A DNA stretch of 64,000 bases from Mobula hypostoma. Its lineage: Eukaryota. The notes beneath the pieces are model-generated. The model searched no databases. It was not told the DNA's origin and saw nothing but the letters and a program-made list of their open reading frames with translations. Location of the stretch: the NCBI RefSeq assembly GCF_963921235.1, contig NC_086108.1:52454001-52518000 (forward strand), written 5' to 3'. Numbering within the stretch: the stretch's first letter is position 1; every line of letters starts with the position of its first letter. The position numbers and the translations under genes are program-made. Below are positions 465-30,900 of the stretch, in pieces.

Positions 465-559
465 CCTCAGCGCTGTTGATGTAAACAGGAGCATTAGCAT
501 CACCCCGCTTCCTGAAGTCAATGACCAGCTCTTCTGTTTTGATGACATTGAGGAAAAGG

Positions 560-2470
560 AGCATTCAAAGCGACTCCATCTGCACACCTAGGACAATCAG
601 ACCACACCTCCCTCACACTGACCCCACCTTACAGACCACAGATCTGCAGAGTTAAACCAACTATCAAGGCAGTACATGTGTGGTCTGCGGAAGCCACCTC
701 AATGCTACAGGACTGTTTTGACAACAGAGATTGGGGCTTGTTTGCAAAGGGAGCAGACCTGGAGGAATATGCTGGTTCAGTCCTAAGATATATTAAGTTT
801 TGCACAGAAAATGTAATAACACAAAAGACAATTAAGGTGTTTCCCAATCAGAAGCCATGGATTAACAGCAATGTGAGGGCACTACTCAGGGAGCGCGATG
901 CAGCCTTCAGGTCAGGAGACAAACAAGCCTACAGTGAAGCACGGGGGAATCTCCGCAGGGACATCAGGGATGCGAAGCGCAAATACAAATTGCGCATTGA
1001 AAATCAGTTTGATAACAACAACCCCCGCAGTATGTGGAAAGGCATCAAGGCGCTGACAGACTACAAATCCAATAATCTGCTGCCAGATGATGACGCCACG
1101 ATACTCAGAGGGAGGAGGCTGCTCCACTCATCAACCCACCTGACGATGAGTCCACACTGATCCTTAAGCAACATCAGGTGAGATCCACCCTGAGGAAAGT
1201 GAATGCGAGTAAGGTAGCTGGCCCAGACGGAGTGCCCGGCCGGGTACTGAAAGCATGTGCCGACCTGCTTGCTGAGGTGTTTACAAGTATATTTAACCTA
1301 TCACTGCAACAAGCTGTTGTTCCATCATGCCTTAAAACCTCCACCATCATCCCAGTGCCCAAAATATCAGCTGTGAAGTGCCTGAATGACTATGGCCCTG
1401 TAGCGCTGACACCCATAGCCATGAAGTGCTTTGAGAGACTTGTGCTCTCACACAATAAGGCTATAATCCCACCTGATCTGGACAAACACCAGATTGCCTA
1501 CTGGGCAAACTGCTCCACAGAGGATGCAATCACAACAGCCCTCCATATTGCTCTGACTCACTTAGAGGAACCGAACACTTATGTGAGGATGTTATTTGTG
1601 GACTTCAGTTCCGCACTTAACACAGTCTTCCCCCATAAACTGGTCAGCAAACTGAACACTCTTGGCCTTGGTTCCTCCCTGTGCTCATGGGTCATGGACT
1701 TTCTCACAGACCAACCACAGCAAGTCAGAATTGGTAAGCACACCTCCACCACCCTCATCTTAAAAATAGGCACCCCGCAGGGCTGTGTGCTGAACCCTAT
1801 GCTCTATACACTCTTCACACATGACTGCACCCCCCTCTACACCTCCAACTCCGTAATTAAATTTGCGGAGGATACCACAGTGGTTGGCCTGATCTCGGAC
1901 AAGGATGAAACAGCCTACAGGCTTGAGGTGGATCATCTGACGGAGTGGTGTAAGGACAACGACCTGGTCCTTAACACTTCTAAAACAAAAGAGATGATCA
2001 TTGACTTCAGGAGATCAAAGGACAAAGTACACCCCCCCCCCGCCATATACATGGAGAGGTAGTGGAAAGTGCGGAAAACCTAAAGTTTCTTGGAGTTATG
2101 TTGTTAAAACAGCTGACATGGACCACCAACACCTCGCTGCTTGTAAAAAAGGCACAACAAAGACTCTTCTTCCTTAGAAATCTGAACAAGGCCAAACTCC
2201 CACAAAAGCTGTTGCTTAACTTCTACAGAAGCACAATTGAAACCATCCCAACCACAGCGTGGTATGCCAGCTGCACAGCCGCTGAGCAACAAGACCTGCA
2301 TCGCGTGGTGAAGGTGGCCCAGCGAATTGTCAGGATGGAGCTCCCAGGACTGAACACCATCTATTCCAGCAGACTCAGGAGGAAAGCAATCAGAATAACC
2401 AGAGACACCACACAACCCAGCCACTCCCTGTTTGACCCGCTGCCGTCCAGCAGAAGGTTCAAGACACTAA
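560..2470 (+). mobile_element. Rex-Babar (Rex1-like) LINE with frameshifted RT; resumes at ~4408-4720
   Basis: ORFs with GPDG, PVALTPIAMKCFERLV, GTPQGCVL, KFAEDT; C-terminal RRFKTL|KARTNRLRNSFYP split by an insertion. Confidence 0.85.
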
Positions 2471-2998
2471 CTATGGCGCTATGAGGGAGGAGCTGGCCAA
2501 AGTTCAATGGAACAATACCCTAGCAGGGATGAGAGTGGAACAGCAATGGCAAGTGTTTCTGGGAAAAATGCGGAAGGTGCAGGATCAGTTCATTCCATAG
2601 AGGAAGAAAGATCCTAAGGGGAGTAAGGGGAGGCCGTGGCTGACAAGGGAAGTAATGGACAGTGTAAAAATAAAAGAGAAGTATAATATAGAAAAGACGA
2701 GTGGGAAGCCAGAGGACTGGGAAACTTTTAAAGAGCAACAGAAGGTAATTAAAAATACACGGAGAAAAAATGAGGTACGAAGGTAAACAAGCCAAGAATA
2801 TAAAGGAGGATAGTAAAAGCTTCTTTAGGTATGTGAAAAGGAAAAAAATAGTTAAGACCAAAATTGGGCTCTTGAAGACGGAAACGGGTGAATGTATTAT
2901 GGGGAACAAGGAAATGGCAGACGAGTTGAACAGGTACTTTGGATCTGTCTTCACTAGGGAAGACACAAACAATCTCCCAGATATAATAGTGGCCAAAA
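2471..2998 (+). mobile_element. CR1 LINE internal fragment
   Basis: KEDSKSFFRYVKRK...MADELNRYFGSVFTRED. Confidence 0.85.
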
Positions 2999-2999
2999 T

Positions 3000-4405
3000 A
3001 GTGGTCTGTCTGTATTGCCCTCAGCTCCTCCCTATTTCCATCTCTAAACGCCCTCTTTTTAGCGTTCAGGATGTCCTTAATATCCTTCATCACCTATGGC
3101 TTGTTATTTGAATAACAAAGGACAGTTCTTGTCAGAACATTGCAGTCCACACAGAAGTTGATGTAATCAGTGACGCACTCTGTGAGCCCATCAATATCCT
3201 CTCCATGTGGCTCACAGAGTGCCTGCCAGTCTGTCACCTCAAAACAACCCTGGAGCGTCTCATAAGCCCCCTCCGACCATTTTCTCACTGTCCTCAAGGT
3301 TGCAGGTTTACTCTTCACCAGAGGCACGTAAGCAGGGTTTTAGATGCACCAGGTTGTGATCTGACCTTCCCGGGGGGGGGGGGGGAGGGGGGAGGGGAGA
3401 GGAGCTGTATGCATCCTTAATGTTAGCGTACATCAAATCCAGAGTCCTCTCCCCTCTGGTTGTACAGCTCACATACTGCGTGAAGTTGGGCAGTGTTCTA
3501 ACCATGGTAACATGGTTGAAGTCACCCGAGATGGTAATGAGGGCACTCGGGTGCTGGGTTTGTAATCTGGCTATGACAGTGTAAATGATGTTACACGCCG
3601 ACGTCAGGTTGGCAGAGGGAGGGACGTATACCACAACCATAATTGCATGCGAGATTTCCCTTGGCAAATAATATGGCAAGAAGTTCAATATCCAGGCTAC
3701 AAACACGTTCCTTGATTGTAATATGCTCAGGATTGTACTATCTGTTGTTTACCAGAACCGCAAGCCCCCCTCCTTTACGCTTACCGCTCTCAGTGCAATT
3801 CCAGTCAGCTCGAACGGTCTGGAAGCCCTCTGTGGAAACGCTTTCATCAGGTATGTCCTCGTGCAGCCACGCCTCAGTAAAACACATGATACTGCTCTCC
3901 CGAAATGTTCTCTGACTCCTGACAAGCGCTGTCAATTCGTCCATTTTGTTCCCCAGTGATCTCACATTTCCCATGACGAGAGAGGGGAGACACGGCTTAT
4001 AACTTCTCTTCTCCATAAGCCTCTGTTGTCTCAATCCAGTCCCCTTCCCTCGCCTTTTTGATCCCCCTCTGCATCCTCTGTGTGTTTTCCTCCAGATTTC
4101 AGCCGGGATGTCCGCTGCTCTATTCACTAAGCCAGCCGGCATGAGTGCAACCAGCTGGTCCCTGGAATAAACAATGTGGCCATCCTGCTGCCACGCTAAC
4201 AAGACGTGTCTGAATATAACTATTTCCAGCGCTAAAAAAACAAGTAAAACTCTCTCCACCAGCATGTTAGAGAGGGTGCAGCTTCAACGTGTTACCATGA
4301 GAAAAAAAATACAACAAATAACCTAAGTTAAAAAGTTTAAAAGTAAGAAACTAAACGGAACAACTGTAACAGGCTGCATGCACGACCGGCACATGCGCAC
4401 TATTG
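3000..4405 (-). mobile_element. Rex-Babar LINE 5' half (5' UTR plus APE endonuclease)
   Basis: GNVRSLGNKMDEL, CFTEAWL, VYVPPSAN, SGDFNH, GRSDHNLV endonuclease motifs. Confidence 0.85.
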
Positions 4406-5330: not shown

Positions 5331-6420
5331 AGAAGTCTTTGTTTCTCTTTAAATAGTGCAGATCAGCCTTGAATGTCTACTTGAGAATACAGCCTCAGAA
5401 AGGGTAAGACGAGGGAAAACATACCAGTCCTCATAGATGGATCAGAGGTGGAAAGAGTGAGCAATTTCAAGTTCCTGGGTGTCAATACCTCTCAGGATCT
5501 ATCCTGGGCCCAACATATCGATCCAGTTACAAAGAAGGCACAACAGCAGCTATATTTCATTAGGAACTTGAGGAGTTTTGGATATCCCCAAAGACACTCA
5601 CAAATTTCTACAGATGTACTGTGGAGCATTCTAATTGGCTGCATCGCTGTCCAGTATGCAGGGGGACGGGGGGGGGGAGCTACTGCACAGGATCAAAATG
5701 AGCTGCAGAGAGTTGTAAACTTAGCTCCACCATGAGCACTAGCCTCCATAGTATTCACAACACTTTCAAGGGGTAATGCTCCAAAAAGGCACCATCCATC
5801 ATTAAGGACCCCTAACACCCAGGACATGCCCTGTTCTCATTGCTACCATCAGAAAGGAGGTACAGGAGTCTGAAGACATACACTCAACGATTCAGGGACA
5901 GCTTCTTCCCCTCTGCCAATGGACATTGAACTCATGAACACTACCTCACTACTTTTTTATTTCTATTTTTGCACTACTTATTTTTATTTTTTTATATATA
6001 AAGCAAAGCTATATAATCGGATGATCTTGAACATGATTCGCACCGCCATTGACCCTAAGCTAAGATTCAATCAGAATGGTTTTCGGCAGAAGCGCACAAC
6101 AGTAATGCAAATACTTGCTGTCCGTAGAATCATTGAGGAAGTCAAGAAGAACAACATACCAGCCGTGCTTACTTTCACTGATTTTCGCAAAGCTTTTGAC
6201 TTCATTCACCAAGGTAAAATGTTGAAGATCCTGAAAGCTTACGGAGTGCCAGACCGTCTACTGACAGCAATAGTGTCCAGCTATACCAAAACCATGGCGA
6301 AAGTTGTACCACCAGATGGAGAAACAGCAGTGTTTGAGCTCCTAGCTGGTGTGCTGCAAGGAGACACTCTGGCACCCTACGTCTTTATAATCGTCCTTGA
6401 TTACACTCTACGTCAAGCTA

Positions 6421-6986
6421 TATGGGGTGTCAGGGAGGGGTAGCACCTCTGGTGGGGGAACATGTCGCGTCCTTTTCAGGGCGGTTAGTCCACCTTTGGT
6501 CCCCACCTGGCACTCAGCTCTCACCTGTGGCTCCCTGTAGCTGTTTGCATGCGACAGCGGCCACACCCCGGGCAACGGCTTTGACAAGCCAGCTAAACCA
6601 GGTGAGGGTAGCTGACGGGTCTCAAACCCTCGGTGAGATAGGGAGTTGTCTATCCCAGCATGTGAAGACAGACTCCGGCGGATTGAGCGGACGAGACCAA
6701 TGGAAGGTCCAACGGTCAAGAAGGCAGTCTCTGCAAGCGTCATGGAACGTGTTGAGCAGGACAAGACACAGAAGACGTCCTGGTCATCCACTGTGCCTAG
6801 TCCCATATCCAGCCGTCTAGATTCTGTCTTGCCACTGGACCCAGATGGGAATTGGGAAGAGAGAGTGAGGCTGACGCTGCGCAACTCTCCCTCACTTAAA
6901 TCCAAATCACGCGCTAGTCTCGACACCATCATTATGGTGTCGAGGTCCTCATCGACGTCAACGATGGACAAACAACAACAACAACA
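6421..6986 (+). mobile_element. Non-autonomous RTE-type retroposon with 5' HDV-like ribozyme, copy 1
   Basis: TSD ACGTCAA(G/A)CTA at 6410-6420 and 6987-6997; (CAA)n tail; 3' hairpin at 6919-6944; interrupts an RTE RT ORF; near-identical to the copy at 29529-30094. Confidence 0.9.
6424..6608 (+). ncRNA. HDV-like self-cleaving ribozyme (predicted), copy 1
   Basis: P1 GGGGTGT/ACACCCC; P2 CTCTCACCTG/CAGGTGAGGG; P3 GGC/GCC; P1.1 CC/GG; P4 GGCTT/AAGCC; J4/2 GCTAA with C6593. Confidence 0.75.
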
Positions 6987-9269
6987 ACGTCAAACTACCA
7001 AAGATCATGACAAACTTGGTTTTACCATAAAACCAGGACGAACCAAAAGGGTCAGACCAGTTATGCTCACAGATCTCGATTTTGCAGATGACATAGTCCT
7101 GCTCTCTGACCAGATGGAGGAAGCACAGCAGCTACTGACAAAAGTGGAAATTGAGTGCAATAAAGTTGGACTTCACCTAAACGCTAAAAAGACAGAGTAC
7201 ATGGCGTTTAACTGCGACGAAGGTAGTCTCAAGACCGTAAAGAATGATACCATTAAGAAAGTCTTTGACTTCAAGTACCTCGGGTCAAGAATGATCAGTT
7301 CAGAGAAGGACATAAAGATATGGAAGGCGCTGGCATGGGGGGCTATGAACAACATGAAGGAAATCTGGAAGTCAAACCTGACGAGAGGGCTTAAAAAGAG
7401 GATCTTCATAGCAGTCAGAGTCCATTCTCACGTACGGATGCAAGATGTGGACACTCACCAAGACTACGTGAAAGTCTCTAGATGGTTGCTGTACACGAAT
7501 GCTCCAGTTGGCTCTTGATGTGAGTTGGCAACAGCACATGACGAACGTCAAGCTCTATGAGGACCTATCGATGCTCACCACTAAAATCGAGTCAAGAAGA
7601 CTGTAACTAGCGGGGCACTGTCTACGCCACCCCGAGCTACCTGCCAGCCTAGTCATCATACAGGAGTCCGAGCATGGGAGGATGAACCCTGGGTGCCCTC
7701 CCAAGACTATGGTCAACACACTCCTAGAAGCCAGCGGCACGGCTAATGTAGATGAACTGAACACACTGATGAGGGAGAGGGAGAAGTGGAGAGTCCATCA
7801 CCGTGCCTGACGCTGGCCCCCTAAGCCTGAGTCAACGTAGTAGTAGTATATAAAATATATAAATAAATACATACATTATATCTTTACACATATACACACA
7901 CACATACACACACACTTAACTGTAATACAGTTTTTCTCTATTATTATGTATTGCATTGTACTGCTGCCGCAAAGACAACAGATTTCAAAATTTATGCCAG
8001 TGATATTAAATCTGATTCTGACTTCTAATAGAAAAACTTCCAATAATACAACATGCTATATATTTCACTGGACAAATTCACACAAAAATCCATGAGCCAA
8101 AGCAGAATAAATTCATAAATGAAGCCATGCACCTGTGTACTTTGATTTGGCCATTATCCAGGAATTTTATATTGATATCTTTATTCAGAAAATGGACTAC
8201 AGTTACTCATTGATTAAAACCTTTGATGGCAATAACTCTTGCAGATGGAAGTGCCATAGAAAACAAATGTAAATTGGGTCAATGTTTGCTGAGCATTTCC
8301 ATTTAAAGAAATCCAGTCACCTGAATCTTTAATTCTTCACCCCCGCTCTTTCGTCCCCTACATGTTCAAAAAAATCCAATGCAAACTCAAGGAATAGAAC
8401 TTCCATCTTCTCTCTGGGTACATTGAAACCTTCAGGACTTCCTTTCCCTCCACAGATGTAATGGTGTCTCTTAGTTTCAATTATTTTTCCTTGCATATTT
8501 CTAAATGGTGCTTTGATTTAAAGTAACTGTTACTTGAGAATTTTGGTCCACCCCTAACCTAGAGATTCCCTCTGGTGACAAAAGAGACTGCAGATACTGG
8601 AAAAGCTCCACCTCTCCTCCTCTCTGCATCTCTGTAGAACAAAGGACCCGACAGAAAATCCTGGCAATTCTGGACAATGTTTCTCACCCTCTGCATGCCA
8701 CCTTGGCTGAACAGAGGAGCACTTTTAGTAACAGACAAAGACAACTGTGCTGCTCCAAAGAGCGCTATAACAATTACCTTCGGCCATTAGGCTCTATAAT
8801 GAGCCAACCTATAGCCGGGGAAGTGGTGACCGCCTCCTGTTTGACTGAGGTAACTTATTTTTTTAATTCTTTCTTTCTTCTCTTCTAATATTTGTAAATC
8901 TGTGTTCCTGTAATGGTATTGTAACACTGTAAACACCTTTGGGATCAATAAAGTATCTAACTTTCTATCTATCTTAATATGCTTGTTTTCTCTATTGTTT
9001 CAGTGTAGGTAAGGATCCTTGATGCCAGCTCTGTTCCTGCACTTGGTGATCTTATGAACTGATGAGTGTTACAACAGTTTGTTTTTGTTATCATAACTAC
9101 TGCCTGTCACTTCTAATATTCAGATTATTCAAAACTTGTTTAGCTATATGAATGTCATGTTGATACATCTGTCAAAGTTATTGCTTGATGTCAAATGGCA
9201 GTTTTGATGAAACTAATTATACCCTCCACATTTCACAACACAACTACTTTGAAAAAAAGAGAGTAACAG

Positions 9270-27900: not shown

Positions 27901-30900
27901 AAGAACAAACTAGGAGTGCTGAATGAAACAATATAAAAATTTCAAAACAGCATACATTCAGGGAACATGAGATACAGAGTCAGAGAGCTGTACAACACAG
28001 AAACATGTCCTTTGGCCCAATTTGTCCAGACCAACCTAGGTGCCTTCCCCAGTTAACTGGCCCATATTCCTCTAAGCCCTTCCAATCCATGTACCTATCA
28101 GAATGTCTTTTAAACATTGTAGTTGTGTCTGCTTCTACCACTTCCTCTGGCAACTTGTTCCATGTACCCAACACTATCTGTGTGGAAAAAAGTGTCCTCA
28201 GGTCCCCTTAAAGTCTATCCCCTCTAACCTGAAATGAATGCCTCTAGGTTTACACTTCCCTAATATGCGAATAAAAGACTTTTACCATCCAACCAACCTA
28301 CAATTCTCCATGATTTTATAAACTTGTACAAAGGCAGTCTCAGCCACCTTCCCAACCCAACCAGTCTCTTCTTATAACTCAAGCCCTCCAATCCCAGCAA
28401 CAACTTTGCAAATTGTTTCTGCACCCTCCAAGTCTTAAGCACATCCTTCCAAGAGTACCTAGTACAGCACAGGAATGCACCCTTCAGTTCATGATGTTGT
28501 GCTGAACTGCACACTGTGCAAAGGGTAAATATATATAGCCAAGGTGCCTAAACTTTTGCACAGTATTGTAGTATTTTGATGTAATGCTCTGTATTGCTGC
28601 CGCAGAAAAAAAGTTCATGACATGTGAGTGATGATAAACCTGATTCTGAAATAGGTCTCTATTGTGGACTGAGAGTGGGAAGGGGACAGGGAGAGGGGAA
28701 TCATGGTTGGCAAAAGGGGAAGGGAGAGGGTAAAGAGTGGGATGCACCAGAGACATTCTATAATGATCAATAAACCAATTGTTTAGAATCAAATGACCTT
28801 GCTTGGTGTCTCAGGGCTGGGTGTGCACCCGTGCAACACCCCCCCCCAACCTTGGCACACCTTCTCTGCCACCTGTCCCACATCCCTCCTGTGGCACTCT
28901 ACCCTATCCACTCCCAACATCCTTTGCTCCTGCCAGATTTACAAACTCGCTCTCCGCACCAATTTGACAAATACAGTACTGTGTAAAAGCCTTAAGCACC
29001 CTAGCCTTTTACACGCACCTAAGCCTTTTGCACAGTATGTAAATAAATGCTCAACTAAACTAAGTTGGTCTCTTTTTATCCCCCAGTCTAAGACAGGAGG
29101 CATTGCATTTAAAGTGAGATGAGCTAAATGCAAAGATGTCTGAGATATCTATTACCTCAGTCACTGCACTACATTGAAATCACTTTTTTAAACCTCTCTT
29201 TATAATGCTCTTTACATTGTAAATACATGTTGGTATTTATGTATGTTCTACTCCATATCCATACTTCAACCTTTCAGTTTATTTTTTATATAATTCTTTA
29301 CTCTTATAATTGAATAAATGTTTTTTTGTTGCATGGCAAGCCAGCACACCACAGCAAATTCCTAATACATGTGAATGTATATGGCAAATACAGTTGATCC
29401 TTCATCCTCAAGACCTCTTAGATAGGCATATTAATGTGCAGAGAGTGTAGGGATATGCAGAAGGGATATAAATGACACATTGTCCAAAGTTAGGAAGTAC
29501 AATAAATCCAGATCATCTACGTAGCAGGGGTATATGGGGTGTCAGGGAGGGGTAGCACCTCTGGTGGGGGAACATGTCGCGTCCTTTTCAGGGCGGTTAG
29601 TCCACCTTTGGTCCCCACCTGGCACTCAGCTCTCACCTGTGGCTCCCCGTAGCTGTTTGCATGCGACAGCGGCCACACCCCGGGCAACGGCTTCGTCAAG
29701 CCGGCTAAACCAGGTGAGGGTAGCCGACGGGTCTCAAACCCTCGGTGAGATAGGGAGTTGTCTATCCCAGCATGTGAAGACAGACTCCGGCGGATTGAGC
29801 GGACGAGACCAATGGAAGGTCCAACGGTCAAGAAGGCGGTCTCTGCAAGCGTCGTGGAACGTGTAGAGCAGGACAAGACACAGAAGATGTCCTGATCATC
29901 CACTGCGCCTAGTCCCATCTCCAGCCATCTAGACTCTGTCTTGCCACTGGACCCAGATGGGAATTGGGAAGAGAGAGTGAGGCTGACGCTGCGCAACTCT
30001 CCCTCACTTAAATCCAAATCACGCGCTAGTCTCGACACCATCATTATGGTGTCAAGGTCCTCATCGACGTCAACGATGGATGAACAACAACAACACGTAG
30101 CAGGCTGCTAGAAAATGGCAGTGGTAAAAGAAGTTTTAATCAAAATATGAAAAAAATATGAAGAAAGAAGAAAGATTTCCTAGGTTGACACCTCTAGGAA
30201 GTATGCACACAGGGATAATATTGGCTTTGTGCAAAGCTGTCCCAAAAGCAAATAATTTTTAATTTGAGTTTATATATGTAAATATACATACGTACTCACA
30301 CACACATTAGAACATAATTTCAGAAAACACAAAAGATAGCACTTGCACTTTCACTTCCAAAATCATCTTAAAAGACGTCCTTTAAGGTATGTGGTGATAA
30401 TAATATGCTCTGCCAAATATCGGACACATATAAGCTTTTTAAAAAAAAGATGGAATTAATAATTACCACTGCTGTAGGCTGGTTCATTTGTTCAGCTAAA
30501 TGCAAGCATGAGTTGAAGGAATAGAGAATGTCCTCACAAAGACCAGCAACAAGTCCATCATGTGGCAGCTTACTCTCCAGCAATGCCCGGTGCTTCACAC
30601 TTATTCTGAAACAGAATGCCGAACTATTAAAACAGAATCTGATTTACAGCTATGGTGTAAAACCATTTTCTCTAATAATCAACTGAATGAAAGCATTTCT
30701 GAAATTTTCATGAAAGGCTGCTACAATTTTATTTCTATAGAGCCCCCTAGTGGGACAGTTGTGCTGCCACTCAGTACATAATCCTAACAGCAGTGTAACT
30801 TCCACATCTTTTTCCTGCCCAATCACTAATTGTCTAAATAGCCAAAAATTAAATCAATACAATCATTTCTGGAAACAGTGCTAAAATTGAATGACAAAAT

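Follow-up and report, generated by a model that had tools for sequence, protein, structure and literature searches.

A non-coding, high-copy retroposon, which we call family Y, occupies positions 29527 to 30094 on the plus strand of a 64,000-nucleotide stretch of the Mobula hypostoma genome (contig NC_086108.1, positions 52,454,001 to 52,518,000; this whole stretch is referred to as the window), and the sequence supports the presence of the full topology of a hepatitis delta virus (HDV)-like ribozyme in the first ~195 nt of the element. Judged from its sequence, the element is a young, non-autonomous retroposon lacking long terminal repeats (non-LTR), drawn from an older superfamily that includes two sister families, M and O. 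The reading of the element as a ribozyme-headed retroposon is well supported by these comparisons, and from them we infer that the head cleaves itself. We consider it probable that the head cuts immediately 5' of G29527 and that the element is moved by a separate long interspersed nuclear element (LINE).

The helices of the HDV double pseudoknot (P1, P2, P3, P1.1 and P4) occur in canonical order, with the P1 3' strand adjoining P3. A sequence-only reading of the window had proposed these helices together with J4/2, and each was found where it had been placed when the indexing was checked. The parts of the head, all on the plus strand, are the following.

29527 to 29533, plus strand: GGGGUAU, proposed true P1 5' strand (from copy 5' ends and pairing with 29675 to 29681)
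29536 to 29627, plus strand: J1/2 insert, a ~90-nt hairpin with its basal stem at 29537 to 29546/29618 to 29627 (minimum free energy folds; both-side changes)
29630 to 29639, plus strand: P2 5' strand CUCUCACCUG, pairs with CAGGUGAGGG
29641 to 29643, plus strand: P3 5' strand GGC, pairs with GCC
29644 to 29671, plus strand: L3, reading UCC-CC-G-UA, then a hairpin GCUGU (29652 to 29656)/ACAGC (29666 to 29670), then G
29672 to 29674, plus strand: P3 3' strand GCC, pairs with GGC
29675 to 29681, plus strand: P1 3' strand ACACCCC, identical in the Y, M and O consensus sequences
29682 to 29687, plus strand: GG (3' side of P1.1), then GCAA of J1.1/4 (GGGCAAC is 29682 to 29688)
29688 to 29703, plus strand: P4 hairpin CGGCUU-CGUC-AAGCCG, strands 29688 to 29693 and 29698 to 29703, covarying between families
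29704 to 29710, plus strand: J4/2, GCUAAAC, with candidate catalytic C29705; GC kept in the three families
29711 to 29720, plus strand: P2 3' strand CAGGUGAGGG, pairs with CUCUCACCUG
29724 to 29745, plus strand: hairpin directly 3' of P2, CCGA(C)GGGU-CUCAA-ACCCUCGG (from the consensus sequences)

P2 (CUCUCACCUG/CAGGUGAGGG) comprises 10 pairs, one of them G-U. L3 begins with UCC at 29644 to 29646, and its C29645 and C29646 can pair with G29683 and G29682 to form P1.1. A second copy of the P1 5' strand, GGGGUGU at 29536 to 29542, also pairs with ACACCCC at 29675 to 29681, in 7 of 7 positions and by Watson-Crick pairs throughout. The active-site letters are present as C29705 within GCUAAA, U29644 C C.. 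G29649, and G29682 G29683, the positions counted here being those commonly taken as defining for HDV-like ribozymes. Six nucleotides are given as invariant in HDV-like ribozymes in the excerpted text of PMC8256844. We also wrote an HDV-type descriptor, which prescribes in order a P1 of 7 bp, a P2 of 6 bp or more, a P3 of 3 bp, the CC/GG of P1.1, a hairpin for P4 and, in J4/2, C.AA, and which allows 6–35 nt in L3 and up to 150 nt in J1/2. On both strands of the window it matched a single site, the copy at 29527 to 30094. Across 568,942 bases of fetched loci its matches were confined to heads of the element superfamily (21 loci), and neither 5.12 Mb of first-order Markov sequence nor 20,000 composition-matched sequences of 199 nt gave any match.

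The evidence that this head belongs to a retroposon comes from the copies. The window copy is ~568 bp long, ends in an (AAC)n tail and is flanked on both sides by the 10-mer ACGTAGCAGG as a target-site duplication (TSD); the last two G of the left 10-mer could equally be the first two bases of the element, as microhomology. Its extent and divisions, and the position of a second copy in the window, are as follows.

29519 to 29528, plus strand: left TSD ACGTAGCAGG, same 10-mer at 30095 to 30104
29527 to 30094, plus strand: whole family Y copy, A-variant at 29532 (genome matches)
29746 to 29906, plus strand: central domain common to the sister families (family comparison)
29907 to 30082, plus strand: family-specific 3' domain, ending ..GUCAACGAUGGA(C/U)G (family comparison)
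30083 to 30094, plus strand: (AAC)4 tail, read in the sequence
30095 to 30104, plus strand: right TSD ACGTAGCAGG, direct repeat of the left 10-mer
6419 to 6986, plus strand: second family Y copy, flanking repeat ACGTCAA

The second copy matches the first at 6419 to 6982 with 96.99% identity over 564 nt; it is without the first ~4–5 nt, has a mutated closing pair in P4, and sits within the reverse transcriptase (RT) coding region of a fragment of an RTE-type LINE. The source genome (3.48 Gb) contains 3538 first-look candidates of family Y, and each of the 40 scored matches aligns over at least 558 of 566 nt with 97–100% identity. The head motif is intact in at least ~1700 copies. Of 31 Y copies examined by script, 28 are flanked by direct repeats of 6 nt or more, the shortest of which are doubtful, and the length of the (AAC)n tail differs among copies. 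The element shows the hallmarks of target-primed reverse transcription, in that its near-identical copies are numerous and dispersed, vary at the 5' junction, and carry TSDs and a simple-repeat tail. The sequence-only reading had described a young, non-coding retroposon of ~560 bp with a 10-bp duplication and a (CAA)n-type tail, and the copy number, identities and flanking repeats bear this description out.

The element has neither the head of a SINE (short interspersed nuclear element) of the kind transcribed by RNA polymerase III (pol III) nor a recognizable gene, as that reading had also noted. ARAGORN found no tRNA-like head in the element and Rfam found no small-RNA head in the window; a tRNA, 7SL, 5S or snRNA head with A and B boxes is not found in the element, and M and O do not retain the B-box-like GGUUAGUCC that family Y has. 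The open frames were considered as coding sequence and rejected. The 196-aa minus-strand frame and two plus-strand frames contain no Pfam family above noise, the sole signal being DUF746 (E = 0.034, below its cut-off), and family M lacks the plus-strand frame. In both copies an open frame spans the entire element on the minus strand (29517 to 30107, 196 aa; 6408 to 6989, 193 aa), which we take for chance in GC-rich sequence.

Next to the single family, we compared the head with its relatives. The search pattern was a 24-mer spanning P2, P3 and L3 in the variant form with C29647A and C29648A, with up to two mismatches allowed. It was found at 5619 places in the genome, compared to 0 for the reversed control; this count takes in family Y, which differs from the pattern by exactly two letters. 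The sample of M and O consists of 30 loci, all on one contig and all perfect matches to the pattern. Ten belong to family M (83–92% pairwise identity, about 525 bp) and 20 to family O (about 66–77% pairwise identity). Over element positions 1–380, Y is ~82% identical to M and 72–74% identical to O. The last ~190 nt of the element differ by family, and the 3' ends vary one theme, namely ..GAUGGACG(AAC)n in Y, ..GAUGGACAACCACC in O and ..CCAGAUGCGACCUAA in M. The comparison is based on three majority consensus sequences and on an alignment of 31 real copies (8 of 31 Y, 10 of 10 M and 13 of 20 O); the seven O loci left out are 5'-truncated, except for one that is a segmental duplicate. Two O copies on one contig (L073 and L074), about 16 kb apart, share 97% identity in their flanks for more than 1.5 kb, a sign of local segmental duplication.

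The P1 3' strand, P2, P3, the UCC..G of L3 and the GG of P1.1 are kept in Y, M and O. As printed, the O consensus reads AG at P1.1, CCCCAG for the bases following P1 and AGGCAG in P4; the AG and the AGGCAG are taken for decayed CpG sites. The segments that differ among the families are these.

J4/2: GCUAAA in Y, GCCAAA in M, GCUAAA in O
P4: CGGCUU/AAGCCG in Y, CCGUCU/AGACGG in M, CCGCUU/AGGCGG in O (inferred, CpG-restored)
J1.1/4 with the preceding GG: GGGCAAC in Y, GGUAAAC in M, GGUACAC in O (CpG-restored)
L3 hairpin stem: GCUGU/ACAGC in Y, GCUGU/GCAGC in M, GCUGU/ACAGC in O
L3 positions 4–5: CC in Y, AA in M, AA in O

Between families, both bases differ in three of the six P4 pairs, and pairing is preserved in every version. 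The column counts from the alignment (RNAalifold and pair count) are CG 8, GC 7, UG 4 and UA 3 for 187/200, CG 18 and UA 8 for 189/198, and UG 10, CG 9 and UA 8 for 190/197. The L3 hairpin retains its stem in all three families, M having U-G in place of a U-A pair, and its loop differs, measuring 9 nt in Y as in O but 7 nt in M. From the downstream GGGGUGU to P2, the ~88 nt form the same long hairpin in the minimum free energy (MFE) folds of the window copy and of the three family consensus sequences, and this J1/2 hairpin shows both-side changes at columns 54/91 (GC 17, AU 11) and 60/86 (GC 17, AU 8). The model as a whole pairs 88.8% of the cells of the alignment, compared to 36.9–54.8% when the partners are slid by 1–3 columns, and 0 of 500 shuffles reached the observed paired share or covariation score. 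These comparisons support an HDV-like topology kept in two diverged sister families, with apparently compensatory change in P4 and in the peripheral hairpins.

Two further structures were seen in the same material. The hairpin directly 3' of P2 (29724 to 29745) has the stem base CCGA/UCGG in Y and M. The printed O consensus gives CCGG/CUGG, where a decayed CpG leaves one A-C mismatch, and the O copies L053 and L067 read CCAG/CUGG. This may be conserved RNA structure beyond the ribozyme. RNAalifold also proposes an alternative 7-bp helix, UGUGGCU (29638 to 29644)/GGCCACA (29671 to 29677), which extends P3 at the cost of P1 and P2. This helix is invariant and could be an inactive conformer.

The 5' ends of the copies bear directly on where the head would cut. 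In all three families the element starts GGGGUGU-AU-GGGGUGUC.., which is a tandem copy of the P1 5' strand, and the subfamily in the window reads GGGGUAU. The sequence-only reading had placed the cleavage site at G29536 and would have had the 5' ends of other copies cluster near it. They pile up nine nucleotides upstream, at G29527, with no such pile-up at G29536. Not one of the 31 Y copies starts at the equivalent of G29536, and in each of them 5 nt or more of the 9-nt leader remain. In 22 of the 31 a G stands at the counterpart of 29527, and the letters upstream of this position are random. In the inspected Y copies extra bases are frequent between the TSD and GGGG, for example CATAGCAT, ATATTTT, GT or C. 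The intact 24-mer GGGGTGTCAGGGAGGGGTAGCACC marks 1693 heads (0 in the controls), with G at position -9 in 1208 and another letter in 485. Among the first 100 listed with this G, 67 have GGGGTGTAT, 13 have GGGGTATAT, and the 20 others are mostly one change off. Among the first 100 listed without it, 91 still end in AT, and by their sequence these are short truncations inside the leader; at most 5 are without a leader remnant. Because the 5' ends pile up at G29527, this is the likely cleavage site.

The leader is present in Y, M and O and in contigs of other organisms. It is inherited and not rebuilt at each insertion, because copies fall apart by A or G at 29532, with the downstream repeat reading GGGGUGU throughout; a cut at G29536 would lose the leader in one generation. 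The upstream GGGGURU can pair with ACACCCC in 7 of 7 positions in M and in the majority G-variant of Y. In the predicted folds, GGGUGUCAGG of the downstream repeat and CCUGGCACUC (29618 to 29627) form the basal stem of the J1/2 hairpin, and this stem is kept through changes as GUGUC(U)AGG/CCUGGCGC in M and GUGUCC(A)GG/CCGGACAC in O. The simplest reading of these sequences would be P1 at 29527 to 29533, three linker bases, the J1/2 hairpin at 29537 to 29627, two linker bases and then P2. The putative cut is likely 5' of G29527, nine bases upstream of G29536.

We propose that the element is transcribed within a longer RNA, in which ACACCCC (29675 to 29681) would pair with the 5'-most GGGGURU (29527 to 29533) and the RNA would cut itself immediately 5' of G29527. 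The downstream GGGGUGU (29536 to 29542) would meanwhile be held in the basal stem of the J1/2 hairpin, as the family comparison supports. A cut at this place would give an RNA that starts exactly at the first base of the element and keeps the whole ribozyme, and a LINE would copy this RNA by target-primed reverse transcription from the (AAC)n end. Insertions leave target duplications of 6–13 bp, often with a few untemplated bases before GGGG. The tandem duplicate of the P1 strand could serve as a decoy or backup. We put forward only tentatively the broader possibility of a long-lived, promoter-independent retroposon superfamily in a cartilaginous-fish genome that would make its own 5' end with a new HDV-like subtype, distinguished by the L3 hairpin and by a ~90-nt J1/2 hairpin that sequesters the tandem P1 strand.

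Several observations weigh against self-cleavage, or against the cut site that we favor. The canonical L3 of HDV-like ribozymes has ~7–8 nt. Here it is made up of 8 nt, a hairpin and a G, which amounts to 28 nt in Y and in O and to 26 nt in M, and we know of no HDV-like ribozyme with a hairpin-bearing L3 of 28 nt. The first eight nucleotides of the loop (UCC-NN-G-UA) fit what we take to be the length and key letters of the HDV loop, and the insert consists of a 19-nt hairpin and one G ahead of the P3 3' strand. G1 of the proposed P1 pairs with C; that of HDV presumably pairs with U. The Infernal-type check of the HDV assignment also turned out negative, as no HDV-type model of Rfam matches the window at its gathering score. 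The best such match is RF02682, the HDV-like ribozyme of F. prausnitzii, which at 29669 to 29715 scores 13.4 bits (gathering score 44; E = 4.4) and aligns with the 3' core only (..GGGCAACGG..CCGGCUAA). Six M and O loci compared with Rfam gave no match of HDV type, and only a chance match to mir-551. The long inserts are a plausible reason for the failure of the Rfam models, and the shortfall counts against simple membership among HDV-like ribozymes.

The covariation has its own limits. The sequence-only reading had looked to P1 and P2 for covariation across copies; it is seen in three of the six P4 pairs and in the peripheral hairpins, and P1, P2, P3 and P1.1 do not covary at all in Y, M and O. 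The invariance of P2, P3 and L3 in M and O is imposed by the pattern with which these families were sampled. The signal comes from three lineages, and the number of independent events is consequently small. The nested MFE of the plus strand does not stand out for its stability (z = -0.90, with 40 of 200 shuffles folding equally well), and as nested MFE leaves out pseudoknots, such z-scores neither support nor exclude a pseudoknotted fold. With regard to the cut site, P1 at 29527 to 29533 has 6 of 7 pairs in the subfamily of the window, with an A-C mismatch at position 6 (29532), and this subfamily was amplified despite the mismatch. On the alignment, a model with the downstream P1 reaches an equal or higher paired share (91.9%). 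For the P1 helix by itself 88.0% is paired in the downstream register and 74.5% in the upstream one, part of this gap arising from rows in which a truncated 5' end gives way to flank.

The alternative that best survives is a head that does not cut, in which a conserved 5' module would bind a protein or the RT, or act as an internal promoter, and the start at G29527 would be set by transcription initiation. The 5' ends, defined and with occasional extra bases, would be distributed in the same way if transcription began at a fixed position, and the failing Rfam models, the L3 insert and the G1-C pair are departures from a canonical ribozyme that such a module would accommodate. In the excerpted text of PMC3383444 the 77-nt head of L1Tc/NARTc is both promoter and ribozyme, so that conservation of structure would by itself be no proof of catalysis. 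A non-cleaving module leaves unexplained why the first 7 nt of the element complement the 7 nt directly after P3, and why UCC..G, GG and GC.AA are kept while P4 and the peripheral loops drift. A pol III box or tRNA-like head, moreover, was not found by Rfam or ARAGORN. We consider this alternative unlikely.

Mobilization of family Y by an RTE LINE, as the sequence-only reading had it, fares less well and is in our estimation quite improbable. RTE is by far the most abundant LINE sampled (the RT piece of the window fragment has 115,189 first-look candidates in the genome), its tails are also triplet repeats, (GTA)n, and ribozyme heads are reportedly found on RTE and other elements, including insect RTEs that Ruminski et al. 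are said to have described in 2011. The RTE fragment in the window (6008 to 7845) is 5'-truncated at about 6008, contains the RT motif ..GVLQGDTLAPYVFIIVLDY.. and is split by the second Y copy; its open reading frame ends about 30 nt before the (GTA)n tail at about 7838. A near-intact RTE at L043 (2196 to 5310) has an 863-aa open frame, the TSD ACCCTGCCTG, a start TCGTTCG.. and an ATG at about +30. Both were rejected as partner, since neither the fragment nor the full-length L043 has a ribozyme head and their alignment to the element is at chance level (best E = 2.0). The 3' ends of the L043 family, the one RTE family examined, also differ from that of the element.

A CR1/L2-like LINE that adjoins an O head in L075 and L077 was considered as partner and likewise rejected. 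In six other copies of this LINE the sequence runs on upstream and has no such head, and the O copy resumes about 8 kb downstream of its head, from which the LINE is best explained as a later nested insertion. In the ~570 kb of sequence scanned no LINE with the head or tail of the element was found; only members of the three families carry them. In L077 (700 to 7320) a nest of CR1/L2-like LINE sequence (ORF1 with an esterase-like domain, endonuclease and RT) lies inside an old O copy. The window itself has CR1/L2-like LINE fragments with RT and endonuclease frames at 552 to 2484 (plus strand) and 3308 to 4283 (minus strand), unrelated to the element.

The third alternative keeps the same ribozyme and shifts its register, with P1 at 29536 to 29542, the cut 5' of G29536 and the 9-nt leader incidental. 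The downstream P1 has 7 of 7 Watson-Crick pairs in every family consensus, with a mismatch in the upstream strand of the window subfamily; it has the higher paired share on the alignment given above, in part owing to the truncated rows; and it was found by the descriptor in all 21 matched loci. With a cut at this place the template would lack the leader, which is nonetheless passed on together with the A or G at 29532. The absence of starts at G29536 among the 31 copies, and the at most 5 leader-deficient copies among the 100 listed, also argue against this register, as does the GUGUC of that strand, which takes part in the J1/2 basal stem kept through changes in three families. We regard it as very unlikely, and retain the cut 5' of G29527 as the favored site. 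Chance resemblance to the HDV fold, which might be suspected in a GC-rich repeat where many helices form and the MFE z-score is unremarkable, has next to no probability given the empty descriptor searches of random and composition-matched sequence and the persistence of the motif, with compensatory change, in families only 70–82% identical overall.

The preferred reading, a retroposon with a self-cleaving HDV-like head, has several known counterparts. With genomic HDV the element presumably shares the helix order, the UCC..G start of L3, the CC/GG of P1.1, GGGCAAC after P1 and GC.AA in J4/2; HDV would differ in its G1-U pair and 8-nt L3, and the element in its GGC/GCC P3 and ~90-nt J1/2. HDV is a circular RNA replicon, whereas the element is a retroposon. 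Eickbush and Eickbush reportedly described HDV-like ribozymes at the 5' end of R2 in 2010. The excerpted text of PMC3774820 (Eickbush, Burke and Eickbush 2013) states that in R2 the P1 pairing sets the cut site, that P1 and P1' are 23 to more than 700 nt apart, and that R2 cut at its own 5' end gives variable junctions with untemplated bases. By analogy all three points fit the element, and its ~90-nt J1/2 falls inside the R2 range of spacing as given there. Both have a double-pseudoknot ribozyme, in our case a predicted one, at the very 5' end of a non-LTR element, with variable 5' junctions. R2 is autonomous, specific for 28S rDNA and released from the rRNA co-transcript, whereas the element is non-coding, dispersed and high in copy number, and has in addition the L3 hairpin insert and the tandem second P1 strand.

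L1Tc/NARTc of Trypanosoma cruzi has an HDV-like head, Pr77/L1TcRz, that cuts at +1, according to excerpts of PMC3185411, PMC3383444 and PMC4035085. As far as these excerpts go, it is similar in being a dispersed family whose short non-autonomous member keeps the ribozyme at its first nucleotides. It differs in its compact 77-nt head that doubles as a promoter, its trypanosomatid host and its known partner; the head of the element is ~195 nt long and the host is a vertebrate. R2 SIDEs are presented in part of PMC3414825 as internally deleted R2 derivatives that keep the 5' ribozyme and the 3' RT-recognition end. They too are non-autonomous and ribozyme-headed, but on that description they share their ends with a known parent and are rDNA-specific, whereas the element is dispersed and had no parent in the ~570 kb scanned. 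Like a canonical SINE, the element is short, non-coding and high in copy number, and it has flanking TSDs, a 3' end of LINE type and a tail of simple repeats. Its 568 bp are long for a SINE, and it differs in having a ribozyme-like head and no known small-RNA head that we could find.

Ribozyme heads on R2, RTE and L1Tc-type elements and on short derivatives of these are already established. The element appears to work like them and is not a demonstrated member of any, and it has a different host group and a much larger copy number. In the full-text literature searched (mostly non-subscription journals, with Repbase and Dfam outside its scope) we found no description of an HDV-like ribozyme on a cartilaginous-fish retroposon, nor of a ribozyme head on a high-copy, dispersed vertebrate retroposon. 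If the head cleaves, the range of HDV-like architectures is wider, and the L3 insert would have let this ribozyme escape the usual motif searches with a fixed loop. Three dated families would then form a natural series for ribozyme evolution, and thousands of sense copies in introns and untranslated regions would cut host RNAs. If the new-subtype reading is true, thousands of potentially active self-cutting units would be spread across host transcripts. The tandem P1 strand raises the testable question of how the cut site is chosen.

Related elements are found in other organisms. Assembled contigs of four public runs, from organisms C to F, were compared with 29450 to 30150. Contigs of all four cover the element from 29528–29544 onward, and none covers 29450 to 29521. 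In one organism, a very abundant related family shares 29603 to 29680 with the changes C29647A and C29648A and keeps the core with another version of P4. In organism F, the core at 29594 to 29690 stands far above the rest in summed contig depth and occurs with several different flanks, which suggests that this organism has more families with such a putative ribozyme head.

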